This document shows, in pieces, positions 21,173 to 40,391 of a DNA stretch of 64,000 bases. Numbering within the stretch: position 1 is the first letter of the stretch; every line of letters starts with the position of its first letter. Made by a program: the position numbers and the translations under genes. Source of the stretch: an uncultured virus (IMG/VR IMGVR_UViG_3300017593_000761). Lineage: Duplodnaviria > Heunggongvirae > Uroviricota > Caudoviricetes. The DNA is taken from the IMG/VR virus record IMGVR_UViG_3300017593_000761; one strand, given 5' to 3'. The notes under the pieces are model-generated. The model had not been told where the DNA came from and searched no databases. It saw only the letters and a program-made list of their open reading frames with translations.

Positions 21173-22151
21173 CTTCACTGATTCGTGGATGGCACATTCC
21201 TCCAAGCAGAAAGATACCAAGTCATTTGAAACTACTTCTCACATGCTAACTGCTGGAGAGCCTTCTGAGGAAGACTGGAACTTATATTTAACAAGTCCCC
21301 CTGCATTTGCAGCGGTTGAAGCTATAACCTTTGCTGTCCTTTCGCCTGGATTTGAAATCCAAAGCGATAGTGAGCAAGTAGCAGAACGATATACAAGACG
21401 GTTTGACAAAGTGTATCCTAAGTTGTATTCGGTATTGAGAAACGCCTTAGTGTTTGGAGATAGCTTTGCAAAGATTATATTCGGACGGGATGGTAAATTC
21501 ACAGACATTGAAGTATTATTTCCACTCAACATAAGAATTCAGAATGGTGATTACTTCCTATATGAGCTTGGGAAGTTCACTCGCTTAAAGAACATTTGGC
21601 AGTTCCAAGCAATGTCTCGTTCGGATTCACCTTACGGCATCTCTCTTATAGGCATAGCTCGACAGCCGCTTAAATGGAAGAAAGAAATAGACGAGAGTGT
21701 TCACGAAGGTATTATAAGACATGGATTTGCTAAATATCACATACAATGCGCTCCAGACAATAGGGGTTTATATCCAGATGACGCAAAGCTTCGAGAATTA
21801 GAGCGAGAATTCCGTAAGATTCATGTAGGACACGAGTTCGTTTCCACAGACAAGGTTAAGATAACTCCAATAGATACTTCGGGTTTCCCAGCCCTCTTAG
21901 AGTATTTGCAATACTACACAAGCCTTGCTGCAACTGGCTTGATGGTTCCTGCTGAGACACTTGGGCAAGGTATAGCAACCTCACAATATGCTACCGCCAA
22001 AGTGAGAATGGAGTTCTTCCTAAAGAATACCATACCTTACTTCCAGAGAGTCCTTGAATGTTCAATTAACGATAACCTCATGGGCGAGAAGGCTGAGGGC
22101 GCTATATTTAAACTGAAAGAGCCAAAAGAAATATCTTATAAAACAGGATGA
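21069..22151 (+). CDS. Portal protein (true start probably 21138 or 21189)
   Basis: Follows TerL; NALVFGDSF, SPYGISLI, VPAETLG, IPYFQRVLECSIN are portal-like. Confidence 0.8.
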   Translation: MNDMWNMKRIQIIGERLVEKSRSMWNRVRGGLSGSFTDSWMAHSSKQKDTKSFETTSHMLTAGEPSEEDWNLYLTSPPAFAAVEAITFAVLSPGFEIQSDSEQVAERYTRRFDKVYPKLYSVLRNALVFGDSFAKIIFGRDGKFTDIEVLFPLNIRIQNGDYFLYELGKFTRLKNIWQFQAMSRSDSPYGISLIGIARQPLKWKKEIDESVHEGIIRHGFAKYHIQCAPDNRGLYPDDAKLRELEREFRKIHVGHEFVSTDKVKITPIDTSGFPALLEYLQYYTSLAATGLMVPAETLGQGIATSQYATAKVRMEFFLKNTIPYFQRVLECSINDNLMGEKAEGAIFKLKEPKEISYKTG

Positions 22152-22579
22152 AACACGATGCATTCGTTCCACTTGGAAGGGAGAAGAAGGACATCTTCCA
22201 TGATAGGATTTTAGTTGAGAGTGGGGACCTTCTCTACGACTCAACTTCTCAAGGCATTCCGATTTATATACCTCCCACTGTCCTGAAGAATGCTCACGTT
22301 CCCAAGAGGCTCCCTTTTCAGATTTATCATAATGGTAAAGAGGTTGGAGAAGTTAAAAATGTTCATTGGGACGGCAAAGCGCTTCGTGGTGACATTATTG
22401 TTTATCCTCGATATAACAAGGAAGTCCTTCAAGAACTTATGAAGGGTAATCATGGATTGTCTGTGCGTTTCTCTTCGTTAGATGAGGACTTTAAAACCTA
22501 TACTCTCATTCGTGATATTTCGCTGGAGCATGTGGCGTTAGTCCCGACTCCAGCTTCACCATCTGCACAATTGGCGTGA
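22148..22579 (+). CDS. Prohead protease 1
   Basis: YH..VGEV, GLSVRF, LEHVALVPTPA; lies between portal and capsid. Confidence 0.75.
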   Translation: MKHDAFVPLGREKKDIFHDRILVESGDLLYDSTSQGIPIYIPPTVLKNAHVPKRLPFQIYHNGKEVGEVKNVHWDGKALRGDIIVYPRYNKEVLQELMKGNHGLSVRFSSLDEDFKTYTLIRDISLEHVALVPTPASPSAQLA

Positions 22580-22611
22580 AGATTTCTACGAAAAGAATAA
22601 GGAGATAGAAA

Positions 22612-23451
22612 ATGGGTGAATTGGCAAATTGTCTGCGTAAGTGTGCTGAAGCACGAACTCACGAACTCGCTGTGTCTGAAGATTTGCAACGATTGATACA
22701 GAAAGCCTATTATGACGCCGTAGTAAAAGGTGCTAAACGAAAGGAATTGTTCCGACGGATATTGCCCGTAGTGAAGGTCAATTCCTATCGGATGAAGATT
22801 ATCACTTCTGATGCAGATGGTTATGCTTCTAAGAAAGCACACAAAGCAGAAGTTCCGTTTATGCATCCAAAGTATACAAGCAGTGATGTAACAATAGAGC
22901 GGGTTTGGACTGTTCCTCTTGCACCTAAGGAATTAATTGAAGACGGTGAGTTTGATGTTATCGAAAACGAGGTGAGGATTGCGGGTGAACAATTAGAAAA
23001 CTCTCTCAACCGAGATGCACTCAGCACAATAATAGATAATGCTGGAAATGAAGTAACAGCTGCCGCAGATTTCTCTGATGTTCTTACGAAAACTGCGGAA
23101 GCATTAGCTAATGTTGGAGATGCAGATTTTGTTCCCACGCATATTATAGCTTGTCCAACATTTTACTTCTCTTTCATGCAAAAGACACGACAGCCATTCA
23201 TCAGAGGGTTAGATTTGAGATTGCTTTCCATTACCTCTAATGGCACGAAGACTTGGGGCTGGGGTGCTTCTGGAGATGTTGGAGCCGTAGTGTTAGATGC
23301 TTCGACAGCTGCACTGATATTGATGCGAGACGATATTACAGTGAGAAAGTATTCCGATCCTCTTGGAGATTTAAGAGGCGCAATAGTTAGTATGAAATAT
23401 AAGGTAGCTATTCGTAAGCCCAAAGCTATTTGTATAATTAAACATGCATAA
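22612..23451 (+). CDS. HK97-fold capsid protein 1
   Basis: ELIEDGEFDVIE..AGEQLEN, DDITVRKYSDPL, RKPKAIC; paralog of 39405..40391. Confidence 0.8.
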   Translation: MGELANCLRKCAEARTHELAVSEDLQRLIQKAYYDAVVKGAKRKELFRRILPVVKVNSYRMKIITSDADGYASKKAHKAEVPFMHPKYTSSDVTIERVWTVPLAPKELIEDGEFDVIENEVRIAGEQLENSLNRDALSTIIDNAGNEVTAAADFSDVLTKTAEALANVGDADFVPTHIIACPTFYFSFMQKTRQPFIRGLDLRLLSITSNGTKTWGWGASGDVGAVVLDASTAALILMRDDITVRKYSDPLGDLRGAIVSMKYKVAIRKPKAICIIKHA

Positions 23452-25865
23452 TGTCTTTAAAGGTAACTTTTCTTGGAGTAAATGCAGAAGCGAAGGGACA
23501 CTCGTGTATATTGCTTGAGTCCCCTAAGGCAAGAGTTCTTATTGAACCAACTCAACGTGTCCCTAATATAGATGCAGTTATCGTAACGGATATAGATAGA
23601 GACGAATATACCGAATGGAGATATTATGCTGAACAAGGTATCCCAATATATTCAGTAGCTGCAATTAAACGATGGGCTGAAGATATTGAGCTAAGAGAAC
23701 ATATTGATGTAATAGGTCACGAATTCTCAATAAAAGGTCTTCGCTTCCTTTGGTTAAAAGCTAATGTCGCTCCACACGAGCCAGCAGGTGGTGTCCGTAT
23801 TCCAGCTTATAATGTTGATATTGTCCCTGAGTTGCCACCGTATATTCCCCAAGCATTAATAAAGGCATTCGGGTTACCACCTTCCCATATTATTGTTGGA
23901 ATAGGCTCATACAAAAAGTCAGACCACAAAATATCATTTGAAGATTTCCTTATACAACTCGAAAAGACTCGAAGTGGCAAAGAGAAAGGTCTTTTGTCTC
24001 TTACTCTCACAAACTTCAGGAAGGACTTGAAAGAACATAAGAGCGAAGTCCTTAGGCGACTTAAAGAACGATGGGACATTCCTATCTTTTGGGCAGAAAA
24101 AGGCATGACGCTTGAATTCTCAAAGGATGGACAGGTCGAGCGAATAGACGGAACCTCTAATGAGTTAGAGAAGCTTCATCTCAAAGAGTTCCTCTCAAAG
24201 GGGATAGACTATGACATTAAACACGTTAAAACAAGATGGAAGGAGTGCATAGCGGACCTGAGGTATATAAGCAATGCCGGGATACCTCGCTTAAAAGCAG
24301 GCAAGAAGTGGGGTGAATGGACTCTTGATGCTTGCTATAAATACTTTGCAGCTTTAGTGGATGCTCTCCGTAGTGTTTATTTTGCCCTCGTTCCTCCTAC
24401 TCAGCCTAAACTTTACAAATTAGAACATCCAGATAAAGACCCGAAAGAAGCACTCAAGACTTCCTTTTGGCAAACTTACCTTAAAGCTGAAAAATACATG
24501 AAGTCGAAACCTCCTAAAGATGAAAAGGAACTGAAAGAGTGGAACAAGAAACGAGCAACGATAATAAGCACATCTGAGAAGAAAAGTGTGAAGGTCGGAT
24601 ACCTTAGTAAGGCAAAACCATATTTACGATTCTTCCTTCCTACCATCCACGAGGATATTGCAAGTGTAGGATGGGACGAAAAGAAACTCCTCATTGATGT
24701 CAAAGCTGATGGTTTGCGTGTTACATTATGGAAGTCCAATGGCAAGGGATACGTGTTCGTAGACCCAGAAGAACTCAAGCATAAATCTCCTTTGATAAAC
24801 AAATACTTGCCTCAGATAGTAAAGGAAATTGAGGAGAGCCTCCCAGACAATACTGCTTTAGATGGAGAGCTGTATGCGGCTAAAGGCAAGGAAGCTCTTC
24901 ACAGAACTGTCATTAACGGAATTATAAACACCAAGCTTCCTCCCGAAAGATTCACTCCTTATGCTTACGTATTCGTTTTCGACGTGCTCGTTTATAAAGG
25001 CACAGACGTTCGGGATAAACCTCTTGAAGAAAGACTGAAATTACTCCAGACACTAAAATCCACTCCTCATATAAAGATAGAGAAACCATCCAAAGTCGTA
25101 GTCCCCGGCTACTCGGGATACATAGTTGATGGAAACAATAAGAGTGCAATAGACAAGGCTATTCACTTGATTGAAACTTCAAAGCATGGTTTACACAAGG
25201 GATTGCAAGAGGGTGTCATGATTAAAACGTTAGACCATCCTTATGAATATCCAACGAATAAGGGAGCAGCCAAAACTAAGTTTTGGCACGAAGTAGATAC
25301 TGTAGTGTTAGGCAAAAAGTTAGTAAAAGGACAGACTGACGTCTGGAATTATCATTTAGGCATCGAGATACCAGCCGAATACGCTAAGATGATGCTCGAT
25401 GATACCAATGCTTATAAACGAGTGCGATGTCTCTATAATGGTCATCTCTATAAAAAGAAGGAATGTTTGGATTATCTGGATAGAAAAGGTGCTCGGTTCT
25501 TCATGGAGTATGGAAAGTCTGATAATACTAAAATTAAGTGTGATGTAGGAGATGTCCTTCGAGTATCGTCTGAGGAAGTCCTGTATAACGAAAATGAAAC
25601 GCATCCTGAATTCCCGTATTACACGGGTTATATCAATAGAGCGATGGAGCCAGTTCCTGAACGAAAGACGTCGGACTCTTTAGTGGTATTACACAGGCTT
25701 TCTCTTCTTGAACCCAAACGTATTCCCTTAGAAGTATTAGCAAAGTGGAAGGAAGGAATTCCATCTGAGCTCACCAAATACCATGAGTATATCAAGTCCC
25801 TTCCTACTTCAAGATTAATTCAATTTTATAACGCATTAAGAAAAGTTCAAAATGGAAGCAATTAA
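23451..25865 (+). CDS. Degenerate metallo-beta-lactamase-fold domain fused to ATP-dependent DNA ligase
   Basis: N-terminal KVTFLG..SCILLE..IDAVIVT; ligase motifs KADG, LDGELY, FVFDVL, EGVMIK, KTK. Confidence 0.85.
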   Translation: MSLKVTFLGVNAEAKGHSCILLESPKARVLIEPTQRVPNIDAVIVTDIDRDEYTEWRYYAEQGIPIYSVAAIKRWAEDIELREHIDVIGHEFSIKGLRFLWLKANVAPHEPAGGVRIPAYNVDIVPELPPYIPQALIKAFGLPPSHIIVGIGSYKKSDHKISFEDFLIQLEKTRSGKEKGLLSLTLTNFRKDLKEHKSEVLRRLKERWDIPIFWAEKGMTLEFSKDGQVERIDGTSNELEKLHLKEFLSKGIDYDIKHVKTRWKECIADLRYISNAGIPRLKAGKKWGEWTLDACYKYFAALVDALRSVYFALVPPTQPKLYKLEHPDKDPKEALKTSFWQTYLKAEKYMKSKPPKDEKELKEWNKKRATIISTSEKKSVKVGYLSKAKPYLRFFLPTIHEDIASVGWDEKKLLIDVKADGLRVTLWKSNGKGYVFVDPEELKHKSPLINKYLPQIVKEIEESLPDNTALDGELYAAKGKEALHRTVINGIINTKLPPERFTPYAYVFVFDVLVYKGTDVRDKPLEERLKLLQTLKSTPHIKIEKPSKVVVPGYSGYIVDGNNKSAIDKAIHLIETSKHGLHKGLQEGVMIKTLDHPYEYPTNKGAAKTKFWHEVDTVVLGKKLVKGQTDVWNYHLGIEIPAEYAKMMLDDTNAYKRVRCLYNGHLYKKKECLDYLDRKGARFFMEYGKSDNTKIKCDVGDVLRVSSEEVLYNENETHPEFPYYTGYINRAMEPVPERKTSDSLVVLHRLSLLEPKRIPLEVLAKWKEGIPSELTKYHEYIKSLPTSRLIQFYNALRKVQNGSN

Positions 25866-27891
25866 GGCGCATGATTTAGAAGTATTGAAAGAGCTTGTGG
25901 AATCCGAACTCAATTATCGCCATGCCAAAGCATTACATATCCCAGATAGAGGAATGTATCTTCCATCTCTCCATGCCAGACTGATATTCAATAAGCACAA
26001 GACAGTTATACTCAAGGATAGGAAGTTCAATATTGTAGGTGTGCCATTCCTTTATTGCGATAAAGACTATGCCTATGGGGTAATAGAACTTGGTGAGCCA
26101 AAAGAGATTAAGAATGAAGGACAATTTAAAGCAACTCAAAAGTATCATAGAGTAACCGAAGAAGAATTCAAGCGATGGCACTGGGGCTTCCCGCTTTATG
26201 CGTTTCCCATTAAGATGATTCATAATTTCAAAGAGCCGATACGTATAAACCTTCCGACGGGTGTGCAGAACTTCTTTAAGAACCCAATACAATATTTAGA
26301 AATTGGTGAGTATCCTTTTACAGTGAAACATAATTTGTCTTTGCCATATCCACTTGAAATAACCTGCTCAAACTGCGGTAACTGGATATATGTCCCTCAC
26401 GCTCCAATGCCGTCTCAATGTCCTCATTGTGATGCTCTTCTTATAGAAACTGAAGAGATGAAATCACGCATGGTCCCTCTTCCTAAAGAGGAATACGAAC
26501 GAATATACAAGGACTATCCCAAGAGACCTCTTCCAAAGAAGTATTACAAAGACCAGCGAAGTGGAGTTGCATGGTGCTTCTCTTCACCCAATACCCCGAT
26601 ATTGACTGAAGAGGGTTGGAAGCCCTGGCATAAAATCCAAGTGGGTGATAAAGTCCTTACTCATCTCGGAAGATACAAACGAGTAACACGCAAAGACGTA
26701 TTTGAGAATGTGCTTAGGTGGGTGAGAGTTGAATTCCAGTTTGATACACTTAAAAACCTTAAATTCCATGCAAGAGTAACTGAAAATCATCCATTCCTCA
26801 CGTCGGAAGGTTGGAAAGAAGCCAAAGACCTTAAAGTTGGTGATAAAGTCCTCTCGAAAACACCTAAACGATGTCTCAATTGTAGAGCTCCTCTTCCTTT
26901 GTCTTGGACAGAAAAGACAGACTTCCTCTTTTGTAGCGATAAATGCTATCAAGAATACAAATGGACAGAGGAAAGTTTGGACACTTCCTATATTGATAAA
27001 CAGGTGTATGATAATCCCTTCGTGGATATTCTCACAACAGTCATTAAGGTAGAGCCAGTTGAGTATCCTAAGGATAAGTTCTATTTGGCTACTCGTGCTT
27101 ATTCAATAGAAGTTGAGGATGACCATTCCTATATGACGCCACTTGCATTCTCTCACAATTCTCAGTGGCACATAAGAGGGATTGAACCTGAAGATAAGGA
27201 AGCATTCGATAAAGGCGAGATAACATTCGAGGAAATGATACTTCATCACAGCTTACACCAAGATTTAAGATGGAAGCTAAATGGCATTTCCACCCTCCCT
27301 CAGTGCACAATAACAGAAAGCGATATGGAGTCTTACGTGAGAGGAATGCTTGGACAGCTCAACCCCGAACAGAAGGGACCAGCCAATGTTCAGAAGGTCA
27401 AGGTTATTCCTAAAGTTGAGATTGCCAAACCTACGATGCCTAAGTCAAAAATTAAGGAGTTTCTTATAGACGAGAAGGGAGCTAAACTTATTAATAAGAT
27501 AATAATTCACGAGACCTCTTACTTCCTTGAACCTGGGGCTGTCGGATCCTTACAATACTCGTGGGCTTATATGGGAACTATATGGACAGGAAGAGTGGAG
27601 ACTGCGACGGAGCGTTTTGATTATCATGAAATCTTCTTTTATCCTGATAAAGACCTTCCTGAGCCTAATAGGAAATTCTTTGATGGACGATTCATATTGA
27701 GAGCCTTTAAGGGCGAAGCAGCTCGTGGTGGGAAAACATGGTGGATGTGGAAGTCCACAAAGAATCCATATCCGCAAAACCCGTGGTGCTATTGTGATCA
27801 AGGTGAGCATGAAGTCCTTCCACTTGACGAGATAAAACACTGGGGTCACGAAGATTATCCTGAGTGGGAAGAAAGAAAAGATGAATGCTAA
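25852..27891 (+). CDS. ASCH-like + Zn ribbon + intein-interrupted LigD-type 3'-phosphoesterase-like protein
   Basis: ASCH-like N-terminus; CSNC/CPHC; after splicing AW-SQWH..LHQDLRW..IWTG..DGRFILR resembles the LigD PE domain. Confidence 0.65.
   Translation: MEAIKAHDLEVLKELVESELNYRHAKALHIPDRGMYLPSLHARLIFNKHKTVILKDRKFNIVGVPFLYCDKDYAYGVIELGEPKEIKNEGQFKATQKYHRVTEEEFKRWHWGFPLYAFPIKMIHNFKEPIRINLPTGVQNFFKNPIQYLEIGEYPFTVKHNLSLPYPLEITCSNCGNWIYVPHAPMPSQCPHCDALLIETEEMKSRMVPLPKEEYERIYKDYPKRPLPKKYYKDQRSGVAWCFSSPNTPILTEEGWKPWHKIQVGDKVLTHLGRYKRVTRKDVFENVLRWVRVEFQFDTLKNLKFHARVTENHPFLTSEGWKEAKDLKVGDKVLSKTPKRCLNCRAPLPLSWTEKTDFLFCSDKCYQEYKWTEESLDTSYIDKQVYDNPFVDILTTVIKVEPVEYPKDKFYLATRAYSIEVEDDHSYMTPLAFSHNSQWHIRGIEPEDKEAFDKGEITFEEMILHHSLHQDLRWKLNGISTLPQCTITESDMESYVRGMLGQLNPEQKGPANVQKVKVIPKVEIAKPTMPKSKIKEFLIDEKGAKLINKIIIHETSYFLEPGAVGSLQYSWAYMGTIWTGRVETATERFDYHEIFFYPDKDLPEPNRKFFDGRFILRAFKGEAARGGKTWWMWKSTKNPYPQNPWCYCDQGEHEVLPLDEIKHWGHEDYPEWEERKDEC
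26575..27159 (+). mobile_element. Intein (195 aa) with no recognisable homing endonuclease
   Basis: Begins CFSSPNTPILTEEGWK, contains VTENHPFLT and YSIEVEDDHSY, ends SHN followed by Ser. Confidence 0.92.
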
Positions 27892-27919: not shown

Positions 27920-28369
27920 ATGGAATCCAAAATTACATTAGCAGATGTTAAGAAAATCTTAACGGATAAGACTGTTTCCTATACTTTAGACCATTTAGAC
28001 CATAAGGAATTCGGATTAGACGTATGGCACATTACGGCACTGGAGGATACCGGCAATGACTCACTAAGGAAGCGCAATTACAGAGTGTTCTCTCAGGGTG
28101 TAGATGATAGTTCTCCTGCATGGTGGGATGACCTGATGAAGCCAGTACTTAGTCAGCCTTCTCCACCTCCTTCATCAACCTTTACTAACGAATTACGAGA
28201 TGCAATTAAAGAGATGATTACCAATGAAAAGATTGAGTTTGCGGAAATTCTTTCAGTAGACGAGCAGAATAATCGTGCAAGACTAAAAGTAGTTACGTCT
28301 CAGTATGCAGAGAAGCAGATGTTAGTTAAGAAGACAGACAGTGGATTTGAAACTCAGGATATTGGATAA
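27920..28369 (+). CDS. Hypothetical protein
   Basis: AGGAG RBS; 149 aa. Confidence 0.7.
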   Translation: MESKITLADVKKILTDKTVSYTLDHLDHKEFGLDVWHITALEDTGNDSLRKRNYRVFSQGVDDSSPAWWDDLMKPVLSQPSPPPSSTFTNELRDAIKEMITNEKIEFAEILSVDEQNNRARLKVVTSQYAEKQMLVKKTDSGFETQDIG

Positions 28370-31300
28370 TGGGTTGGCTTTCTGGATGGCAATATCGGAA
28401 GAAAGTAACTATTTCTGGTTCGAGTGGAGCTGGGACTAACTATCAGGTCAAGCTATCCATTGGTAGTTCGTCAGGTGGCGATTTTCATTTAGAAGGACAC
28501 TGCACTGACTTCCCAAATGACATTCGGTTCACTGATGATGATGGTGAGACGCTCCTCGATTACTGGATAGAAGACCCGACACAGGACCCGATTACGGTAT
28601 GGGTAGAGGTCCAAGACAGCTTAGACAGTGATGTGGATATTTACGTTTACTACGGCAACCCTTCTGCCAGTTCTGCGATTGATGGGGAGGCGACTTTTGA
28701 GTTTTTTGATGATTTTGAGATTGGAAAAATAAGTTGGAGTCTTGGGACAGAAGGTTTTAAAAAGCCATTTTCTCATTTTGCTGTTAATATACAACAAACA
28801 GGTTTGTTACCATCCGATTATGTTGGCGATATTACTAATCCTACTGTTGCATGGAGTTACGATGCTGGAGAAGTTGGGCTATGTGTATTGGTTGATGATG
28901 TTAATAATGATGGGAAAGGTGAAGTAGTATTTGCCACTGATAGTGCGATTCGTTGTTTGGATTGGCAAGGCAATTTATTATGGACCTACTCAATCCCCGA
29001 TACAGGCATCCACACATTTTTAATTATTGATGATATAAATAACGATGGGACAAAGGAAGTAGTATTTGGCACTTATGTAACGCATGAGGTTGATGGTTAC
29101 GTGCGGTGTCTAAACGCTTCGAGCGGAGAAGAGATTTGGAATTATTACTGTAATAAAGGAGTCACCACTACTGGCAGTGATCCGAACGGAATTCAGGTTG
29201 CAGATATAGATGGAGATGGTGAGAAGGAAGTAATTGTTCTTTTAGATATAGATGGTGAGTTGCTTGTATTAAATGCTGATGGGACCTTAAAATATAGCAA
29301 AACTGATGCATCGGAATTTGAGTATGGGGTTGCAGTAGGAGATATAGATAACGACGGAGAGTTAGAGTATGTTCATGGAACTGAAAGTAATGGAATACAT
29401 ATACGGAAAGCAAGTGATGGAACGTTAGAGGCATCCTGGTCAGGAGCTACAAACACGTATTTCAGCGCATCACCCACAATCGGAGATATTGATGGAGATG
29501 GAAAAATGGAAATTCTTGCCGGTTTGGATGTGCTGGCTTCGGGAGGCACCAGTCTTGTATGTCTCGAAGATGATGGGACAGTAAAATGGGCGGTCACTGA
29601 TAAGGGAGATATGGATTATGCGTCCGGATTATTAGCTGATATTGACGGTGATGGAAATTATGAGTTTGTGAGAGGAAGTGACGACTATAATATATATTGC
29701 TTCAACGCATTAACGGGAGAAATAAAATGGACTTATTCTACAAATGATAATTGCAAATATGCGCCCGTCTTGGGTGTTGATATAGATGGCGATGGCAATC
29801 TGGAGATAATAGTTCTCAATCAGGTAGATGGTTATATTTATTGTCTTGATAATGCAGGAAATTTAAAATGGAAAATATCAGTGGGAGCCGGAGGGCAGTA
29901 TTGCTCTCTCGCAATCGCTGACCTCAATAACGATGGTAAAGTCGAACTGATAGTGCCAACGACGAATGGTGTTGCTTGTTATGTAAATGGGGAAGGTAAT
30001 CCATTAGAAAAATGGACAATTGTCTCCGGAACATGGAGCGCTGATAATGGATACTTAGAAAGAACAGGAACAAGCTCGAATTTTGATGAAATCTATGCAG
30101 AAGTTTCAAATCCGATTACAAATTTTGCTATTGACTTGCGAATGTTGCAAGGCGCAATACTGGATGAGTTTGATATTTGGATTGCGTATAACGCAGATGA
30201 AACCGTGATATATGTAGTCTGGAATGAAAATGGTGGTCAGCATGTTTTAAGTGATGCTACTGATGGTGCTTTAGATAGCAAAACAAATGTTGATGAAGCG
30301 AACACTTGGTGGGATATTTCTTTCAGGAAGTATGGAAATAATTTTAAAGTTTATAAAGATGGTGTTCTGTGGCTTTCAGGAAGCCCGACAACTGACAGGA
30401 GTGCGGAGACCATCACACAAGTAAGGATTATGAGTAGAAATACAGTAGCAGGAGAGCCGACAAACAAAATTGACCTCATCCGTGTCCGCAAATACACAGA
30501 GCCAGAGCCTTCATTCAGCAGTGCGGGAAGTGAAGAATCGCCGTATTTCACTTGTATAGACATAAGTTCACTAACTTCGTCTCCTCTACCTTTCCAAGAA
30601 CTGCACACATTATGTTCTGAAGTCTTAAAAACTTCTGGAGCATCTTCGTCCCTTCTTTCTGCTATATTGAACTCTCAAGATAATTTTGGGTTGTTGGATG
30701 CTAATCTTTCTGGTCTTCTTTTAATTGCGAGTTCCATTGATACAATAGATACAAGTGATGGTTGCACCATAACGTTCTCATTTACAGGGAATTGTTTAGA
30801 TATCCTTCACTCGACTGATAATGCGTCTTCACTACTTTCAATGTTGTGTCAGAGCACAGATAAATTTGGAGGGACTGATAGTGAGCTATCTCAACTTTCA
30901 CTTCTAACAACATTATTAGATAAGCTACATCAACATGATAGTTCAGCTTCTAACATCACACTTGAGCGAACAATTCTCGATATTTTAGGATTTCAAGACC
31001 TTTCCTCTTTTCCCATAGGCATAATCGTTTCCGCTTCTGATATTCTCCACATTTACGATTTGAATAGTGTGCGTTTAACATTCTCTTGTTCGAGCATAGA
31101 TATCATCAAAAATGCAGACAGCTCTGGAGTAAATGTTACATTTCACTTGAGCACTGATGACATCCTTAAAGGCACGGACTTTGTGTCTGGTCATCTCCAA
31201 GCTATTCTTAGTGCATTAGACGCACTCAAGATTAGTGACAGTAGTTTGTCAAGCATGTTCGCTGGGATATTAGTCTCTGCTTCAGACATTCTTGCTACTT

Positions 31301-31593
31301 CCGATTATAATGCAATTCGTTTAGAGTTTTTGGAGTCCTCAATAGACATTATAAAATCAAAAGATAGTTCATCTTCTATTGTTTCATTTCAATTAAACAG
31401 CACTGATGTTCTTCATGGTATAGATATTCTTACTGCTAATCTTCAAGCCATTCTTGGTGCTATCTCCAAGTTCAAGAATAGTGATGAAACTTCTTCGTAT
31501 GAGGTCATAATCGGAATACCCGTTAAGATATTTAAGGCTCAAGAAAAAGTCTTGGTGTTCAGAGCAAAAAAAAGCCATTTAGGTTCAAAGTAA
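28369..31593 (+). CDS. DUF2341 / FG-GAP-like beta-propeller adhesin with S/L/D-rich repetitive stalk
   Basis: DIRFTDDDG..LDYWIE..YYGNP; many DIDGDG repeats; lectin-like domain; periodic C-terminus. Confidence 0.82.
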   Translation: MGWLSGWQYRKKVTISGSSGAGTNYQVKLSIGSSSGGDFHLEGHCTDFPNDIRFTDDDGETLLDYWIEDPTQDPITVWVEVQDSLDSDVDIYVYYGNPSASSAIDGEATFEFFDDFEIGKISWSLGTEGFKKPFSHFAVNIQQTGLLPSDYVGDITNPTVAWSYDAGEVGLCVLVDDVNNDGKGEVVFATDSAIRCLDWQGNLLWTYSIPDTGIHTFLIIDDINNDGTKEVVFGTYVTHEVDGYVRCLNASSGEEIWNYYCNKGVTTTGSDPNGIQVADIDGDGEKEVIVLLDIDGELLVLNADGTLKYSKTDASEFEYGVAVGDIDNDGELEYVHGTESNGIHIRKASDGTLEASWSGATNTYFSASPTIGDIDGDGKMEILAGLDVLASGGTSLVCLEDDGTVKWAVTDKGDMDYASGLLADIDGDGNYEFVRGSDDYNIYCFNALTGEIKWTYSTNDNCKYAPVLGVDIDGDGNLEIIVLNQVDGYIYCLDNAGNLKWKISVGAGGQYCSLAIADLNNDGKVELIVPTTNGVACYVNGEGNPLEKWTIVSGTWSADNGYLERTGTSSNFDEIYAEVSNPITNFAIDLRMLQGAILDEFDIWIAYNADETVIYVVWNENGGQHVLSDATDGALDSKTNVDEANTWWDISFRKYGNNFKVYKDGVLWLSGSPTTDRSAETITQVRIMSRNTVAGEPTNKIDLIRVRKYTEPEPSFSSAGSEESPYFTCIDISSLTSSPLPFQELHTLCSEVLKTSGASSSLLSAILNSQDNFGLLDANLSGLLLIASSIDTIDTSDGCTITFSFTGNCLDILHSTDNASSLLSMLCQSTDKFGGTDSELSQLSLLTTLLDKLHQHDSSASNITLERTILDILGFQDLSSFPIGIIVSASDILHIYDLNSVRLTFSCSSIDIIKNADSSGVNVTFHLSTDDILKGTDFVSGHLQAILSALDALKISDSSLSSMFAGILVSASDILATSDYNAIRLEFLESSIDIIKSKDSSSSIVSFQLNSTDVLHGIDILTANLQAILGAISKFKNSDETSSYEVIIGIPVKIFKAQEKVLVFRAKKSHLGSK

Positions 31594-34400: not shown

Positions 34401-35305
34401 GTGCTATGGGCAATATAACCGCAATTGTTAAAGGTTTCATGCGTCCCAAGAAATTCGAGAATTGCTTGAAGTGTATAATAGCTGCTGGTATAAAGAAAAT
34501 CATAGCTTCGTATGACGGACCGGAAGAGTATTTTGATGCACACAGGAGTATAGTGGGAAAACTTCAGTGGGATGCTTCCATTCGTTTCTTGGAACTTCCG
34601 TTTAATATTGGACTTTCAGCTGCTCGCAACAGAATGATTGAACGGGTTTCTACTGACTACATTCTTATGGTTGATGATGATAACTACATTCCTCCATTTA
34701 CTCTTGCAATGATAAAAGCGTTTCAGTATATGCCTGATGAGATAGGTGGAATAGCTATGGGATGGTTACCGATAAACTCACCGTTTCCACAGATGGATGC
34801 ATTCGATATCGAGATAATAGATGGTTATTTCTTTCGACGTCTTGCCAGTAAGAAATACGTTTTAGCCATAGATGGGATGACATATTTGTATCCATTTGAT
34901 TTTGTTCCCAACCAGATAATATTCAAGAGGGCTCTCTTCAATGATGTGCAATACGATGAGCATTATGTTATAAACAGAGAACATGAGGACTTCTTCCTTA
35001 CTTGCAAGCTCAAAACTGACTGGAGGTTCGCAGTGTGCACCTCGATTTATTCTATTCACGATCCGGGAAAGGATGCCAGTTATTCAAAGTTTCGATTTGG
35101 CAAAGAGCATGATGAAGCTGCTGAATACTTCCTAAAGAAATGGAACCTTAAGGGCATAGCACCACAGAGATACGGTCCCGATTACATTTCCTTGCTATAT
35201 GATGGCGCATGGCAATTCGGAAGAATGCAGGAGAAGAACATGTATTTAGAATGGAAATTAAAAGGTAAGATATTAGGAGAGCAAGACCTATGGCACGACG
35301 CTTAA
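34370..35305 (+). CDS. GT2 glycosyltransferase
   Basis: NIGLSAARN, MVDDD, EHEDFF. Confidence 0.85.
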   Translation: MQKVYVPGWVSAMGNITAIVKGFMRPKKFENCLKCIIAAGIKKIIASYDGPEEYFDAHRSIVGKLQWDASIRFLELPFNIGLSAARNRMIERVSTDYILMVDDDNYIPPFTLAMIKAFQYMPDEIGGIAMGWLPINSPFPQMDAFDIEIIDGYFFRRLASKKYVLAIDGMTYLYPFDFVPNQIIFKRALFNDVQYDEHYVINREHEDFFLTCKLKTDWRFAVCTSIYSIHDPGKDASYSKFRFGKEHDEAAEYFLKKWNLKGIAPQRYGPDYISLLYDGAWQFGRMQEKNMYLEWKLKGKILGEQDLWHDA

Positions 35306-35949
35306 AATTAGAGAAGGGCAACTTCTATATCCTTTTGGATGCCTGCCGTTATGACATCTTTGCTTCGGTCGTTTACGATTATCTCGATGGCGAATTAGAA
35401 GAACGGGATAGTGGAGCTTGTAACACGTCTCAGTTTTATCAGATTTCCAACATTAAGGACTTTCGAGTTGCGTCCTTTAATCCAACCGGTGAGTTCTTTC
35501 ATCATCCAGAATTCGTGATGCTTCCTTCTTTATATTGCGAGGACAACCTCGATGACCTCATAGCGGGAAAATTCACCTGTGAAGTCCTTCATCTTATACC
35601 ACCACACATGCCTCCCCAAGACCCGAAATACTGGAAGCTTTGGTTTGATACTATACAGGATTATGCAGAGCAGAAGGATAAAACAAAGCCTATAAACTTA
35701 GGTCGTTGTAATGTCGAGGCTTATTTCTATTCACAATTGGGCAGAGCAAGAGCACTCCAAATTTATGAGGATAATCTTCGTTTTGCCCTAAGAGCTATCG
35801 CAGAGCGATTGGATAAACTCCCAAAGCCTTTGATATTGATAGCGGATCACGGTGAGCTCTTTGGAGAATATGAATGCTGGGGACACACTGAGAATTGTGT
35901 TAAAGGAAGGCACATCTTAAGAAGAGTCCCACATTTCACAGTCAAATGA
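35290..35949 (+). CDS. Alkaline phosphatase/sulfatase-superfamily protein
   Basis: LDACRYD, PPHMP, ADHGELFGE..WGH, LRRVP. Confidence 0.75.
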   Translation: MARRLKLEKGNFYILLDACRYDIFASVVYDYLDGELEERDSGACNTSQFYQISNIKDFRVASFNPTGEFFHHPEFVMLPSLYCEDNLDDLIAGKFTCEVLHLIPPHMPPQDPKYWKLWFDTIQDYAEQKDKTKPINLGRCNVEAYFYSQLGRARALQIYEDNLRFALRAIAERLDKLPKPLILIADHGELFGEYECWGHTENCVKGRHILRRVPHFTVK

Positions 35950-36215
35950 ACAATGGAGTGATTCGCAGTTGGACTAAGTCCTTCACATGGCGAATATTAG
36001 GGATACTTCTCTTAGTCTGCTTCTCCTACATATTTACTCACGACGTCAAGGCAGCAAGCTTAATTACGTTAGTCTTTCATGGTGTTCGAGTCCCTCTTTA
36101 TTTTATCCACGAACAACTATGGGAACGAGTGCATCATATTGACATGCTCTATTTCTTCCTTGCTTTAGTTCTCTTATTTATTTCCTTTCTATTCGTCTGG
36201 AAGGTAGGAACATGA
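35946..36215 (+). CDS. DUF2061-like membrane protein
   Basis: RSWTKSFTWRILG..YFIHEQLWERV. Confidence 0.7.
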   Translation: MNNGVIRSWTKSFTWRILGILLLVCFSYIFTHDVKAASLITLVFHGVRVPLYFIHEQLWERVHHIDMLYFFLALVLLFISFLFVWKVGT

Positions 36216-36994
36216 AGCGTCTTGAAGAGAAAAGCATATACGTGATACGTGAGGCTTACAGTAGGTTTAACCGTATAGCTGCATTATGGAGCACAGGAAA
36301 GGATAGCACTGTATTATTGTGGCTCTGTCGTAAAGCTTTCTTTGATGGGATACCATTCCCTGTGATACACATAGACACAAGCTTTAAGTTTGAAGAGACG
36401 TATTCCTTTAGAGACAAGATAGCAAAAGAATGGGGATTAGACTTGATAATAGCAAAGAATGAGGAAGCACTTAGAAGTGGTATGAATCCAGAATGTGGAA
36501 AGTTTCAGTGTTGTAATGCTCTAAAGACTGAGGCACTAAAACAGTGCATACGAGAACATAATTTTGATGCCATTCTTTTGGGTATACGGCGTGATGAGCA
36601 TGGGGTGCGAAACAAAGAACGATTCTTCTCACCGAGAGATGAAAATTTCGAGTGGAACATTTGGGAACAACCTCTTGAGGCTTGGGACATCTACACAATA
36701 GATGAAGAAGCTAACCATTATCGGGTTCATCCCATCTTACACTGGACGGAAATTGACGTCTGGAAATACATTAAGAAGGAAGGATTGCCAGTTAATCCAC
36801 TATATTTCGCTAAGAACCATAAACGATACCGCTCTTTAGGTTGTAAGCCTTGCACTTCTCCCATTGAGTCAGATGCTAAGAACATTGATGAGATAATCAA
36901 GGAGATAGAGGAAAGTCATACACGTGAGCGATATGGTAGAGTGCAGGACAAAGAGAATTTGATGGAACGTTTACGTGTTCTTGGCTATATGTAA
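36212..36994 (+). CDS. cysD: Sulfate adenylyltransferase subunit 2-like (PAPS reductase family)
   Basis: SIYVIREA, STGKDS, HIDT.FKF, GIRRDE..RNKERFFS.RD, RVHPIL.WTE, RYRSLGC. Confidence 0.8.
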   Translation: MKRLEEKSIYVIREAYSRFNRIAALWSTGKDSTVLLWLCRKAFFDGIPFPVIHIDTSFKFEETYSFRDKIAKEWGLDLIIAKNEEALRSGMNPECGKFQCCNALKTEALKQCIREHNFDAILLGIRRDEHGVRNKERFFSPRDENFEWNIWEQPLEAWDIYTIDEEANHYRVHPILHWTEIDVWKYIKKEGLPVNPLYFAKNHKRYRSLGCKPCTSPIESDAKNIDEIIKEIEESHTRERYGRVQDKENLMERLRVLGYM

Positions 36995-36996
36995 AA

Positions 36997-37905
36997 ATGT
37001 TAGATAAAGAAGAAATAAAGCGATTAACCAAGAAGAGTATGGAGGGTGCTTACCTTCCTGTCCCTTCGCATGGAGGTTTAAAGACCGCTCGCTTCAGGTT
37101 AGAGGACGTTCAGAGGTGCTTTAGACAGCCTGCCCTCCTTCGGGACTTCATTTATTTAGTTGGTGGAGTAGCAGTGCATGGCAAGGGGAATGACGTGGAC
37201 TTAGTGATACGAGGTGAAGACCTCTCCGAGCCTCAACGAGAAGCATTATTATTTCGTTTGTATCGAGCCTTTGCGGATTACTTCAAGATTCCCTATGATG
37301 AGACACCCAAGTATTTGCACATAACATTCAATAATTACGGTCCCTATACGAATCACATGCTCTTATACCATCTGGCGATAGTCCCTAATGAAGAGAAGCG
37401 AATCCATGAGATGGAACTCCTGAAGTCAGCAACAAATGGTGAGTGGATAGTTTACGGTTATGGTTCTATTGATGCAGTTGATCTCGAAGGTGATGAAATC
37501 ACAATTGAGGCTCTCAAGGGCATGTGGGAAGAAATGCAGAAGACTCCCAAGAAATACTGGAACGTAATGAATGAGCATGGTGGTGTTCAGGTTGGTGAGA
37601 TCCTCCCCGAGTGGAATGGACTAAAGACGCATGTGGATGATAGGGGCTTCTTTGTGATAGTGAAACTCAGAAAGGATATAGAAGCAGCTCGAAGAGTATG
37701 GGAGGCAATTCATTCCGATGATGAAGATGAACGTATCAAGAGCTTCTCGATTCACATAGAGTATCCAGGCGGAGTAGAGGAATGCACAGAAAAAGTCTGT
37801 GATAAGAATAGGTGCTGGCGTAAAATAACCAAAGCGAGATTCCTTGAGTTGAGCTTCACGAGGAATCCAGCTAATCCCTTATGTATATTCAAACCTGCGA
37901 ACTAA
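36997..37905 (+). CDS. Pol-beta-type nucleotidyltransferase fused to HK97-type prohead protease 2
   Basis: YLVGG..NDVDLVIR; then YGYGS..VDLEGDEI, EH..VG, KSFSI, ELSFTRNPANP. Confidence 0.8.
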   Translation: MLDKEEIKRLTKKSMEGAYLPVPSHGGLKTARFRLEDVQRCFRQPALLRDFIYLVGGVAVHGKGNDVDLVIRGEDLSEPQREALLFRLYRAFADYFKIPYDETPKYLHITFNNYGPYTNHMLLYHLAIVPNEEKRIHEMELLKSATNGEWIVYGYGSIDAVDLEGDEITIEALKGMWEEMQKTPKKYWNVMNEHGGVQVGEILPEWNGLKTHVDDRGFFVIVKLRKDIEAARRVWEAIHSDDEDERIKSFSIHIEYPGGVEECTEKVCDKNRCWRKITKARFLELSFTRNPANPLCIFKPAN

Positions 37906-37932: not shown

Positions 37933-38187
37933 ATGGACGAGATTCGAGAGCTATACATTGGTGATAAACCTTATGATAATTATTTGAGAGCTCTGGGCGA
38001 TTCCCAGAGTGTGAGTATTCTTGCAAGAGGCAAAAACGTCAAGAAGGCAGTAGATGTAGCATTGATGGCACAGAGGCTAAGTCAGTTTACCATTAATGCT
38101 GTTACGATATACGATGAGAAGATGACAAGCGATGATGGCGAACGTGAATATTACGTCAGTGCAATAAGAATAGACTTGGTTCGTTAA
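37933..38187 (+). CDS. alba: Alba DNA/RNA-binding protein
   Basis: IGDKPYDNY, ILARGKNVKKAVDVA, VSAIRI match the Alba signature. Confidence 0.85.
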   Translation: MDEIRELYIGDKPYDNYLRALGDSQSVSILARGKNVKKAVDVALMAQRLSQFTINAVTIYDEKMTSDDGEREYYVSAIRIDLVR

Positions 38188-38217
38188 TTATATAAAATAA
38201 AGGAAAGGAAGAGTAAA

Positions 38218-38793
38218 ATGGCAACACAAGAAGAGGAATTTGAGGAATTCTTTAAAGAGTTAGAAGATACAGCAGAGGATACTGAGGAACAGAAGTCGGA
38301 AGAGGATGAGACAAAAGCTCTCACCAAAGCAGATGTCATTAAGATAGTGAGGGACGAACTCAAGACGTTCTGGCAGGGTGTGCTATCGGGTAAATACCCA
38401 TTACCGAAGGCAGCGAAGTATCCGTATGCAAAGTATCCCTACGCGGTTTATCCGTATGCAGTGTATCCCTATGCCAAATATCCAATGCCAGGGAACAAGA
38501 AGAACACAGATGACGTTCCCGTAATGCCATTCTTCATTATGCCACAGGTGGACACGACTCAAGCGACTTCTCAAACTGACAGCACGAAGTCCAATGACAA
38601 GGATAAGGTGATTGAGGAACAGAAGTCCCAGATAGAGGAACTGAAGAAGACCGTTGATGAGCTCCAAAAGAAGCTTGAGGACTTGAGTGCACAGCCTGCT
38701 CCAGAAGAGAATAAGCAGGAGGGTGCTTCAGTTAATTCACCGCAATACGTTTCCGACGTTGTAATAGAGGGCGATACAATATCTCGACCCTAA
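38218..38793 (+). CDS. Putative scaffolding protein with YPYA repeats
   Basis: Acidic N-terminus, (K/V)YPYA repeats, coiled coil; lies between protease and capsid genes. Confidence 0.6.
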   Translation: MATQEEEFEEFFKELEDTAEDTEEQKSEEDETKALTKADVIKIVRDELKTFWQGVLSGKYPLPKAAKYPYAKYPYAVYPYAVYPYAKYPMPGNKKNTDDVPVMPFFIMPQVDTTQATSQTDSTKSNDKDKVIEEQKSQIEELKKTVDELQKKLEDLSAQPAPEENKQEGASVNSPQYVSDVVIEGDTISRP

Positions 38794-38815
38794 AATACCT
38801 CTATGACATAACTTA

Positions 38816-38936
38816 AATTTTTCACCATTTGCACATATTTGAGGCTGAGTGCAATTTTACCCTTGAGCATGATAAATTATACCTACCTGATACCAAATTC
38901 TCTCTAAACTCAAATATGTGCATGTGGTAAAGATTT
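38816..38936. repeat. Dispersed dyad element copy 4 (core 38830-38922, 93 bp)
   Basis: Perfect inverted arms TGCACATATTTGAG / CTCAAATATGTGCA. Confidence 0.9.
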
Positions 38937-38966
38937 CTACGTTAAACCTTGATAATGAGGTAGAAA

Positions 38967-39371
38967 ATGACGGAAGTAGAAGATGTAGTTGCTGGTGCAC
39001 CAGTCATTGTGACCTTCTTGGCTGGTGCGGATATTGAGGCTGGTCAGGTAGTAGGCTATGATGTGAGTGCTTCTCCTGCCGATATGACTGTTTCTCCTAC
39101 GTATCAGGATGGCTATGATACCATTCCCGTCGGGGTAGCGGTGGATTCAGTGGAGCAGGATGACCCCGTGCCTGTTGCTATTCCTCCCTCGATAGTGAGG
39201 GTAAGGTCGGTAAGTGCGGTTAATGCTGGTCAGCTGGTGCAACTCAATGAGAGCAATGCGGGTCAGGTTGAACCATACAACTCCAGCGATAACACTTGGG
39301 CAGTCGGTCAGGCTCTTGAAGACATAGGTGCAGGTTCGACTGGTAGAGTGAGGTTACTCCTCACGAAATAA
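38967..39371 (+). CDS. Capsid decoration/cement-like protein
   Basis: AGADIEAGQVV..PVGVA..AGQLV..VGQALED..G..RVRL; immediately before the capsid gene. Confidence 0.7.
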   Translation: MTEVEDVVAGAPVIVTFLAGADIEAGQVVGYDVSASPADMTVSPTYQDGYDTIPVGVAVDSVEQDDPVPVAIPPSIVRVRSVSAVNAGQLVQLNESNAGQVEPYNSSDNTWAVGQALEDIGAGSTGRVRLLLTK

Positions 39372-39404
39372 ATACCTCTATCTTAAATTAATAGGTAAGG
39401 AGAA

Positions 39405-40391
39405 ATGGGTGATTTTGCGAATTTACTACGGGTTGTAAAGGCTGGTGATAATGCGAATGAAAGGACTTACTGGATGAAGAGACTCTCTAAGGGCACACAC
39501 GAGTTAATGCAGGCTTACAATATAAGCGCTGAACACCTCGTTCGAGAGGAATTGTATAAGGAAATACTCAGAGGCGCAGAGGAAGTCCTATGTATGCGAG
39601 AAGTCCTTCCGATTTACAGAATGAAGAAGAACGAGCTGAGGTTTGTCCTCACAGACGCTCCCACAGGTATGCTTCCACTTGTAGCACCAGGTTCGTCTCT
39701 CCCCGAGGGTCCAGATGTTCACTTTAAGTCAGACGTCACATTCGTAGCACAGAAATACGGTGAGAAGGTTGGCATACCAGAGGAACTCATAGAAGAGGAA
39801 GAGTTCGATATCATAGAGCTGTTAGTTCACAATGAAGGTCGTCGAGCAGAGAACAGGCTGAATGACGTAGCAATGAAGGCGCTATTAGATGCGAAGAGTA
39901 GCGTTGAAAGTACAGACAACGTATGTATCATTGACCGAATAGTCGAGATGATAAAGACAATGCGAGGAAACAAGTTTGAACCAGACACCATCATAATGAC
40001 ACCGGATGCAGAAGCTGAGATACTCAAATACATGGTAGGTGAATCGAAGGCAGCTAATACAACTGGCACAACGGGCTATCAGAAGACAGGTGTTCCTGAA
40101 GTGTTCAGGACTAAAGACATAGGCAGACCAATAGTAGGTCTGAAACCCTATGTGTTATCAAAGAGTGTAACTGGTGATACCCTAACTTGGGGTGGAGCTG
40201 ACACCAATGCTCACATCTGTATCCTCGATAGCAGAATGGCTGGTGGAATAGGTATGCGAAGTGACATAGCAGTTGAGCGATACGAAGACCCTCTTAATGA
40301 CCTCAGAAACCTGAAGATAACTATGAGAGTGTGTGCCAAGACATTCTTTGCGGACGCTATCGAGTTCGGTGATATAGCAAGTCTGCTATAA
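39405..40391 (+). CDS. HK97-fold major capsid protein 2
   Basis: KYGEKVGIPEELIEEEEFDIIE, PDTIIMTP, DIAVERYEDPL. Confidence 0.88.
   Translation: MGDFANLLRVVKAGDNANERTYWMKRLSKGTHELMQAYNISAEHLVREELYKEILRGAEEVLCMREVLPIYRMKKNELRFVLTDAPTGMLPLVAPGSSLPEGPDVHFKSDVTFVAQKYGEKVGIPEELIEEEEFDIIELLVHNEGRRAENRLNDVAMKALLDAKSSVESTDNVCIIDRIVEMIKTMRGNKFEPDTIIMTPDAEAEILKYMVGESKAANTTGTTGYQKTGVPEVFRTKDIGRPIVGLKPYVLSKSVTGDTLTWGGADTNAHICILDSRMAGGIGMRSDIAVERYEDPLNDLRNLKITMRVCAKTFFADAIEFGDIASLL

Follow-up and report, generated by a model that had tools for sequence, protein, structure and literature searches.

The uncultured archaeal tailed virus recorded in IMG/VR as IMGVR_UViG_3300017593_000761 (Caudoviricetes) encodes two functional, distantly related HK97-type capsid proteins, and the gene for each of them lies beside a gene for a predicted capsid-maturation protease. 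The stretch of DNA that was analysed, referred to here as the window, is 64,000 nucleotides long, and the genes in question belong to one long structural operon of a tailed virus that occupies the plus strand from about 17.3 to 51.5 kilobases (kb). The first group of head genes begins with those for the large terminase (19547..21172; phrog_2 at an expect value (E) of 4.7e-26, PF17289 at E 2.6e-5) and the portal protein (21069..22151; phrog_9232 at E 6.4e-9, PF04860 at E 2.4e-8 with 34 bits, under the cut-off of 39.1), both of which are present in single copy. These are followed by the gene for protease 1 (22148..22579), a protein of 143 amino acids also designated ORF143 and assigned from its predicted fold, and by the gene for capsid 1 (22612..23451), an HK97-type protein of 279 amino acids assigned from Foldseek and from its match to Protein Data Bank (PDB) entry 8qpq. 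The second group begins 13.5 kb after the end of the capsid 1 gene and encodes protease 2 (36997..37905), which has a Peptidase_S78 domain at amino acids 199-294 (PF04586, E 4.7e-5, 24 bits, cut-off 21), an Alba-like nucleic-acid-binding protein (37933..38187; PF01918, E 2.3e-5, 24.5 bits, cut-off 25), a putative scaffolding protein (38218..38793; a weak PF06810 match at E 0.0046), a capsid decoration or cement protein (38967..39371; PF09956, E 2.9e-7, 31.2 bits, cut-off 24) and capsid 2 (39405..40391), an HK97-type protein of 328 amino acids (PF25209, E 4.5e-4, 21 bits, cut-off 27). All of these genes are on the plus strand, and the starts of the two capsid genes are 16,793 bases apart. In translation, the putative scaffold protein is acidic at its N-terminus, contains a KYPYA-type repeat and looks like a coiled coil in its C-terminal half.

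That the two capsid proteins are paralogs had been proposed in the first-pass annotation from four pairs of short motifs, and this is borne out by a full-length alignment (81 of 315 positions identical, or 26%; E 1e-17) which contains all four of the motifs. Both proteins can also be aligned with the major capsid protein (MCP) of Haloferax tailed virus 1 (HFTV1; PDB 8qpq), capsid 1 at E 3.7e-12 and capsid 2 at E 0.013. When 50,697 named phage records were searched by tblastn, capsid 1 had only five matches, which fall in the HFTV1, HRTV-29 and BLv36 group (22-24% identity, E 4e-17 to 1e-9), and capsid 2 had none at E <= 0.01. A profile scan of viral contigs with capsid 2 recovered only the virus group to which the window belongs (13 loci, 88-100%), and PF25209 (Phage_capsid_4) is carried as a precomputed assignment by all 16 clusters homologous to capsid 2. 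Capsid 1 has no Pfam or PHROG match of its own. Its AlphaFold2 model, based on 20 close homologs, was poor (predicted local distance difference test (pLDDT) 56) and served for a fold search only. Foldseek returned 125 PDB matches at E <= 0.001 for this model, and all among the matches listed are capsid or prohead structures of tailed phages or HFTV1; HFTV1 came first (E 1.7e-11) and HK97 was matched at E 1.2e-5, with template modelling scores of 0.4-0.5 for a model of this pLDDT. Direct comparison of the sequences thus suggests that capsid 1 is the haloferuvirus-like copy.

Capsid 1 is without two segments found in its relatives. It has no pro-region of about 100 amino acids, such that its residue ~25 aligns with residue 109 of the HFTV1 protein, and it is without a segment of about 31 amino acids in the A-domain that is common to capsid 2 and the haloferuvirus MCPs. 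The affinities of capsid 1 also differ along its length in a single MAFFT alignment, where the regions compared span 24-121 positions. For residues 1-24, identity amounts to 42% with capsid 2 but 8% with HFTV1, and for the last 49 residues (231-279) it amounts to 37% and 17%, respectively. The order is reversed in the A-domain (residues 146-230), where identity is 19% with capsid 2 and 28% with HFTV1. Ahead of the two genes, a shared TAAGGAGA motif is located 6 bases before the ATG of capsid 1 and 1 base before that of capsid 2 (22596-22619 and 39397-39412), and both genes start with ATGGGTGA.

Protease 1 has no significant Pfam or PHROG match of its own, the only row being DUF2213 at E 0.021, and comparison with PDB sequences, either as a single sequence or as a profile, returned nothing relevant. 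Two of the eight members of its family match PF04586, with a best E of 6.5e-5. The AlphaFold2 model of protease 1 (pLDDT 83.7, predicted template modelling score 0.77) resembles T4 gp21 with a Z score of 11.0 and a root-mean-square deviation of 3.2 Å (124 of 164 residues aligned) and the herpesvirus proteases (assemblins) with Z scores of 8-10.6, and rows for the unrelated MCE domain have Z scores of 6.8 at most. H61 is invariant in the family alignment (13 of 13 sequences) and S105 is found in 12 of 13, and these residues may form the catalytic pair given the resemblance of their motifs to those of His65 and Ser114 in HK97 gp4. The protein stops where the protease fold stops (the model range extends to residue 143) and has no scaffold extension, and its ratio of nonsynonymous to synonymous substitution rates (dN/dS) is 0.05-0.09. 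Based on the predicted structure, protease 1 appears to be a minimal capsid-maturation protease with the assemblin/S78 fold. It resembles gp17 of HFTV1 only weakly, with a BLASTP match of 11 residues at E 0.016 and an hhalign probability of 8% (E 0.0043). Protease 2 matches PHROG head maturation protease families besides PF04586 and has a dN/dS of 0.016-0.026. The N-terminal 140 amino acids of protease 2 have no Pfam match at E <= 1, and the nucleotidyltransferase (NTase)-type clusters found for this part of the protein are sub-threshold Atlas leads only (0.84-0.85, threshold 0.9), such that the NTase label of the first-pass annotation has the standing of a lead. The two proteases had been described as dissimilar, which agrees with a pairwise BLASTP E of 0.36.

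Three virus records with direct terminal repeats, designated G002, G003 and G004 (71.9, 81.8 and 80.7 kb), are long enough to hold both head modules. A viral contig scan supplied one of these, a 71.9-kb contig with both capsids, and a subsequent profile scan supplied the other two. All three records retain the two capsids and the two proteases in an unchanged gene order, neither capsid gene has an internal stop in any of them, and the capsid genes are 15,573, 17,678 and 17,358 bases apart from start to start. Proteins of G002-G004 are 56-97% identical to those of the window over the structural arm, and the window genes from 17.3 to 47.8 kb have orthologs in the same order with the exception of four open reading frames (ORFs), three of which (27920-28369, 35946-36215 and 36212-36994) have no match in G002-G004 and one of which (35290-35949) matches G002 only. 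All-against-all BLASTP of the window and these three genomes did not turn up another portal, terminase, scaffold or tail gene, in keeping with the single terminase, portal and tail set reported in the first-pass annotation. The same comparison identified only two pairs of paralogs in the structural arm, namely the capsids and the N-termini of the DUF2341 fibre-like proteins. Among the shorter records, the nearest one (G001) is a 27.8-kb fragment without either capsid, and two 20-kb fragments (G005 and G006) have capsid 1 only; at the spacing of the complete relatives, the capsid 2 gene is expected past the end of G005, and G006 would have room for no more than the first few hundred bases of it.

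Capsid 1 is full-length (279-286 amino acids) in all 11 viral loci and in one contig from a metagenome-assembled genome (MAG), and a second MAG contig cuts the gene at the contig end. All 19 clusters homologous to capsid 1 are 277-286 amino acids in length. The intact copies in the 11 viral loci and 19 clusters, together with the HK97-fold matches, run counter to the possibilities that capsid 1 does not adopt an HK97 fold or has become a pseudogene. Capsid genes of these viruses occur in MAGs that are labelled Micrarchaeota, Bathyarchaeota, Chloroflexi and Methanosarcinales (L019, L020 and clusters P0006, P0010 and P0036). Most likely, these copies are on viral contigs that were binned with cellular genomes, and the labels say little about the host.

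Capsid 1 is hypervariable, whereas capsid 2 is highly conserved. Between the window and G003 or G004, capsid 1 is 56-58% identical and capsid 2 is 89% identical, and the values for other proteins are 76% for the portal, 77% for ORF143, 79% for the terminase, 88% for the ligase encoded downstream of capsid 1 and 88% for protease 2. Identities within the group of G003/G004-like loci are 94-100% for the portal, 87-100% for ORF143, 78-90% for capsid 1 (nine loci, with one identical pair and one 96% pair excepted) and 92-100% for capsid 2 (a different six loci of the same group). G003 and G004 themselves have identical capsid 2 proteins (100%) and capsid 1 proteins that are 84% identical. The synonymous divergence (dS) between these two genomes is 0.80 for capsid 1, as compared with 0.21 for the portal, 0.35 for ORF143, 0.07 for capsid 2 and 0.13 for protease 2. 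Both capsids are under purifying selection, with dN/dS values of 0.10-0.19 for capsid 1 and 0.05 for capsid 2. From these sequence comparisons, the capsid 1 alleles appear to be older than the genomic background, which points to recombination or balancing selection. The variation in capsid 1 is concentrated in alignment columns 151-240, corresponding to residues ~146-230 in the window. Within the G003/G004-like group, the proportion of nonsynonymous differences (pN) is 0.21-0.34 in these columns, and the ratio of this value to the proportion of synonymous differences (pN/pS) is 0.37-0.50; outside these columns pN is 0.02-0.06 and pN/pS is 0.04-0.29. Judging from the order of secondary-structure elements and the alignment with HFTV1, the variable block appears to be the A-domain.

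Most proteins of G003 and G004 are 95-100% identical. Those that vary in the structural arm are, besides capsid 1, two DUF2341 fibre-like proteins, fibre A (63%) and fibre B (61%), a Gp77-like adaptor (71%) and the product of a 74-amino-acid ORF after the adaptor (83%), the scaffold-like protein (89%), the tape measure protein (82%) and the product of a 116-amino-acid ORF after it (87%), and the products of three ORFs after fibre B that are likely distal tail proteins (27-78%). Outside the structural arm, a few small ORFs and an ORF in the methylase region are under 90%. The structural operon has one DUF2341 fibre-like gene in each of its halves, and both are highly variable between strains. 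In the window these are fibre A (28369..31593; PF10102 at E 1.1e-20 and the FG-GAP family PF13517 at E 1.8e-29) and the distal tail fibre-like protein, fibre B (47814-50348), whose N-terminus is paralogous to that of fibre A. The N-terminal 102 amino acids of the two are 40% identical, and about 450-500 amino acids are common to the two in G003 and G004. Fibres A and B may be two alternative receptor-binding proteins on one anchor.

The capsid 1 gene is followed in the window by a gene for an 804-amino-acid protein with an ATP-dependent ligase domain (23451..25865; PF01068, E 2.2e-13), and the overlap of the capsid 1 stop codon with the ligase start codon (TAATG) had been taken to suggest a shell for the enzymes encoded there. 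The overlap is indeed present in the window, but it is not kept in relatives, as the two genes are adjacent without overlap in G002 and are separated by two extra genes in all eight of the other relatives that reach the ligase. A link between capsid 1 and the downstream enzymes is therefore weak. The two intervening genes, seen for example at 10865-12539 of L011 and also present in G003, G004 and other loci of the G003 type, are missing from the window and G002; one encodes a 225-amino-acid protein with a signal-peptide-like N-terminus and no Pfam match, and the other encodes a 331-amino-acid papain-family cysteine peptidase (PF00112, E 4.7e-14). Another local difference is found directly before protease 2, where a DUF2061 membrane protein and a PAPS reductase (PF01507, E 5.9e-48) are encoded at 35946-36994. 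Neither has a BLASTP match at E <= 1e-5 in G002-G004, which points to a strain-specific insertion inside the structural operon. In one relative (L009), the terminase ORF (2110-4761) is 883 amino acids rather than 541 and the ligase ORF (8759-12193) is 1144 rather than 804, the window protein matching part of each, and these enlarged ORFs may result from intein insertions. The Hint-domain protein of G002 is likewise longer than its counterpart in the window (1023 versus 679 amino acids).

The remaining genes of the operon include those for two glycosyltransferases (17310-19099, by annotation) and a 166-amino-acid ORF (19096-19596) ahead of the terminase gene, and a gene for a Hint/intein-bearing protein (25852-27891, by family matches) behind the ligase gene. 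After fibre A there are genes for small tail-fibre-associated proteins, glycosyltransferases, a radical-SAM/SPASM enzyme and the DUF2061 protein and PAPS reductase described above. Capsid 2 is followed by a single set of connector, tube, tape measure and distal tail genes (40761..51493) that is syntenic in G002-G004 and includes the tape measure gene (43124-46903; PF10145, E 3.5e-23). All of these are on the plus strand. The flanking arms, on the minus strand, carry genes for replication and nucleotide metabolism, including a family B polymerase (60204-62231; PF00136, E 4.8e-31), NrdD and its activase, a dCTP deaminase, an RNA ligase, a ClpP-family protease (58602-59186, minus strand; PF00574, E 1.4e-27) and DNA methylases. 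ClpP is the third protease of the genome, and it would seem unlikely to take part in head maturation, as far as its gene position away from the head genes can indicate. The N-terminus of the large terminase, ahead of the ATPase-nuclease part, weakly resembles metal-binding domains of the archaeal TRASH/YHS type (E 7e-4 and 3e-3, under the cut-offs). The Alba-like gene between the genes for protease 2 and the scaffold-like protein is kept in all three complete relatives (83-95% identity), and its product may be a packaged DNA-binding protein.

The two-capsid arrangement is already known and was published in 2023 (PMC9894754). Laso-Perez and coworkers described the Ekchuahviridae (genus Kukulkanvirus; Nat Microbiol 2023, PMC9894754; preprint 10.1101/2022.07.04.498658) as a family of tailed viruses that they assigned to ANME-1 (Methanophagales) and whose complete genomes measure 71.8 and 80.6 kb. 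In the portions of PMC9894754 available here, the family is defined by a pair of divergent MCPs of the HK97 fold, both of which have a capsid maturation protease next to them, and by the single copies of the other morphogenetic genes. The authors excluded an assembly artefact, and they considered one MCP to be "likely ancestrally conserved" and the other to be one that "appears horizontally transferred from haloferuviruses", arguing that the two have coexisted for a long time (PMC9894754). They called the arrangement unique among the archaeal tailed viruses known to them, and those portions of PMC9894754 propose no function for the second MCP. Two further near-complete genomes have been placed in the Ekchuahviridae by a 2026 preprint (PMC12934983, as far as its accessible text goes).

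The gene order given for an ekchuahvirus in the annotation table of PMC9894754 starts with terminase, portal, protease, MCP, an unknown protein, a papain-like peptidase, ligase, an intein-bearing DNA-binding protein, a glycoside hydrolase and a tail fibre. The table continues with a glycosyltransferase, a radical SAM protein, a second glycosyltransferase, protease, an Alba-like protein, an unknown protein, a phi29-like head fibre protein and MCP, and ends with connector, tube, chaperone, tape measure, fibres, dCTP deaminase, RNA ligase, NrdD, ClpP, phosphoesterase and PolB (PMC9894754). Rows _57 to _108 of this table (Table 10) are matched gene for gene by the annotations of the window, with the exception of the two genes after capsid 1; the Alba-like protein of the window occupies the position of the Alba-like protein there, and the decoration protein occupies that of the phi29-like head fibre protein (PMC9894754). 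G003 and G004 follow this gene order as well. The window also has two HK97 MCPs, each beside a protease, with the rest in single copy, and it shares the family B polymerase, NrdD, ClpP and dCTP deaminase. A further criterion for the family is an RNA-primed family B polymerase together with an archaeo-eukaryotic primase, to which the window, being part of a genome, contributes the family B polymerase gene. It differs in that the ligase gene directly follows capsid 1, where the annotated genome, G003 and G004 have the unknown gene and the papain-like peptidase gene in between, and in that it has the DUF2061 and PAPS reductase pair before protease 2, which is missing there in G002-G004. Judged by the defining features and gene order, the window appears to be from a further member or a close relative of the Ekchuahviridae.

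Comparison with other viruses bears on how the two proteases should be viewed. The first-pass annotation had regarded the second protease as one dedicated to its own capsid. While there is a protease gene beside each capsid gene, the pairing is not capsid-specific, as both proteases are present in PBV299, a member of the sister family Ahpuchviridae for which one MCP is annotated. PBV299 is known here from its annotation table, in which terminase, portal and a 159-amino-acid S78 protease are encoded in a row as in the window, and a 285-amino-acid S78 protease, a glycoside hydrolase, an unannotated 208-amino-acid protein, a head-fibre-like protein and the MCP are encoded far off; it differs from the window in having no capsid gene after the short protease (PMC9894754). 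Going by this table, the short protease would not have originated as a partner of capsid 1, and the two-protease, split-head layout is independent of a second capsid (PMC9894754). The Haloferuviridae, as exemplified by gp13-gp19 of HFTV1, share the order of portal, protease and MCP genes, and their MCPs are the closest to capsid 1 among named viruses. They differ from the window in that the HFTV1 protease is a 480-amino-acid protease-scaffold fusion, compared with the 143 amino acids of protease 1, and in that a stabilisation protein is encoded between the protease and the MCP, where the window has nothing between protease 1 and capsid 1. Direct comparison of the decoration protein of the window with HFTV1 gp18 gave an E of 0.033. 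The HFTV1 MCP is 396 amino acids long, and residues 1-100 are missing from it in the virion, as stated in the sections of PMC12494034 available here.

Phage T4 and the window are alike in that each genome encodes two paralogous HK97-fold shell proteins, and it is the shorter of the two that is proposed here to be the minor one. The T4 proteins occupy different positions in the capsid, gp23 forming hexamers and gp24 forming the pentamers at the vertices, and they are encoded by adjacent genes and share one protease (gp21). In the window the capsid genes are far apart, each is beside a protease gene, the proposed minor protein is hypervariable and the system is known here from genes alone.

Taken together, the most favoured explanation, which is offered tentatively and at somewhat below an even chance, is that capsid 1 is a minor, exposed component of the shell that is assembled together with capsid 2, for example at the vertices. 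Of the possibilities raised in the first-pass annotation (a mixed-subunit capsid, two particle types or a repurposed shell), the data thus lean towards the first. Capsid 2 would build the bulk of the shell with the long protease and the scaffold-like and decoration proteins, as suggested by its location in a complete protease-scaffold-decoration-capsid block and by its near invariance between strains. Capsid 1 would join the same procapsid as a minor, outward-facing subunit, most likely in separate homomeric capsomers such as those of the eleven non-portal vertices, by analogy with gp24 beside gp23 in T4. Capsid 1 would not be able to assemble alone, since the lack of a pro-region in capsid 1 and the bare catalytic form of protease 1 suggest that it depends on the one scaffold protein there is. 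Those regions of capsid 1 that contact adjacent capsomers in HK97-type shells (the N-arm, the E-loop region and the P-domain) are strongly conserved and capsid-2-like, and the A-domain at the capsomer centre would vary freely and be swapped among strains along with the fibre genes, which might be expected for an exposed surface. A more specific form of this proposal, which is possible but more doubtful than not, is that capsid 1 is an outward-facing capsomer protein, probably at the vertices, in a capsid truly built from two MCPs, and that its A-domain serves as a surface module that diversifies and recombines, keeping pace with the fibres as it evolves.

Several observations weigh against this view of capsid 1. 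The protein is known here from genes alone and the host is uncultured. The capsid genes, at 15.6-17.7 kb from each other, do not lie side by side as genes 23 and 24 of T4 do. With values of 0.37-0.50, pN/pS in the variable block is below 1, and relaxed constraint together with recombination would explain the variation without surface exposure; the block moreover adjoins a hot spot for gene insertion, which alone would be able to raise recombination. The assignment of the block to the A-domain lacks a confident model (pLDDT 56), resting on secondary-structure order and the HFTV1 alignment, and the region-wise identities of capsid 1 come from short spans of one alignment. Finally, the ekchuahvirus table gives the HFTV1 MCP as the best HHsearch match for the counterpart of capsid 2 (PMC9894754), whereas direct comparison puts capsid 1 closer to the HFTV1 MCP.

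Alternatively, one of the two genes could be redundant following horizontal acquisition, with one protein building the shell in a given host or condition and the other being a backup copy, a host-range variant or a gene in transit. The inferred horizontal transfer of one MCP and the fact that PBV299 manages with one MCP despite having both proteases (PMC9894754) are consistent with this idea, as is the swapping of capsid 1 alleles between otherwise near-identical strains. On the other hand, all 11 viral loci and all 19 clusters have an intact capsid 1, its dN/dS is 0.10-0.19, and capsid 1 would be a poor stand-alone shell builder without a pro-region or scaffold of its own. Given also the long coexistence argued for by Laso-Perez and coworkers (PMC9894754), redundancy is an unlikely, if conceivable, explanation. 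The presence of a protease gene beside each capsid gene could instead mean that there are two types of particle, for example a small and a large head, each built by one of the capsid proteins on the same portal and terminase, and the absence from capsid 1 of the ~31-amino-acid A-domain segment could allow for a different geometry. Only one scaffold-like protein and one decoration protein were found, though, and both proteases are also present in PBV299 with its one annotated MCP (PMC9894754). Considering further that the three complete relatives show neither another unit of genome size nor a satellite and that the contact regions of capsid 1 resemble those of capsid 2, two particle types seem distinctly unlikely.

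The overlap of the capsid 1 and ligase genes in the window would fit with a shell that is not part of the virion, that is, an encapsulin-like compartment or other intracellular assembly of capsid 1 that houses the ligase and the intein-bearing protein. At 279 amino acids, capsid 1 is presumably similar in size to the family-1 encapsulins. There is no encapsulin family among the Pfam matches of the window at E <= 0.01, however, and the best relatives of capsid 1 are virion MCPs. Unlike an encapsulin gene, the capsid 1 gene directly follows the terminase, portal and protease genes, such that it has the portal and protease genes on one side and the remainder of the structural operon on the other. 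Moreover, the overlap is not conserved, with genes for the signal-peptide protein and the papain-like peptidase intervening in relatives of the G003 type, and conservation is 85-89% for the ligase as against 56-60% for capsid 1, which indicates that the two do not co-vary. A non-virion shell is therefore very unlikely. The joining of two viruses in one contig has next to no probability as an explanation for the two modules. A chimeric assembly junction is refuted by the three independent terminal-repeat records, which keep both modules in the same order and 15.6-17.7 kb apart, and both the GC content (0.39-0.445) and the positive GC skew of the window are even from 18 to 52 kb, across both head modules; an artefact was also excluded for the published genomes (PMC9894754).

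To our knowledge, it is very rare for tailed viruses other than the T4-like phages to have two HK97-type shell proteins. Beyond what is reported in the available portions of PMC9894754, the analysis adds modest new clues, which are the hypervariability of capsid 1, the loss of assembly helpers from capsid 1 and its adjoining protease, and the presence of the second protease in a sister family with a single capsid. These observations make the question of the second capsid testable. If both proteins do occur in one shell, with capsid 1 as its minor component, this would show a division of labour between HK97 subunits and the integration of a horizontally acquired capsid gene. If capsid 1 is a diversifying surface module, the shell protein itself would be a determinant of host interaction or of the evasion of defences.

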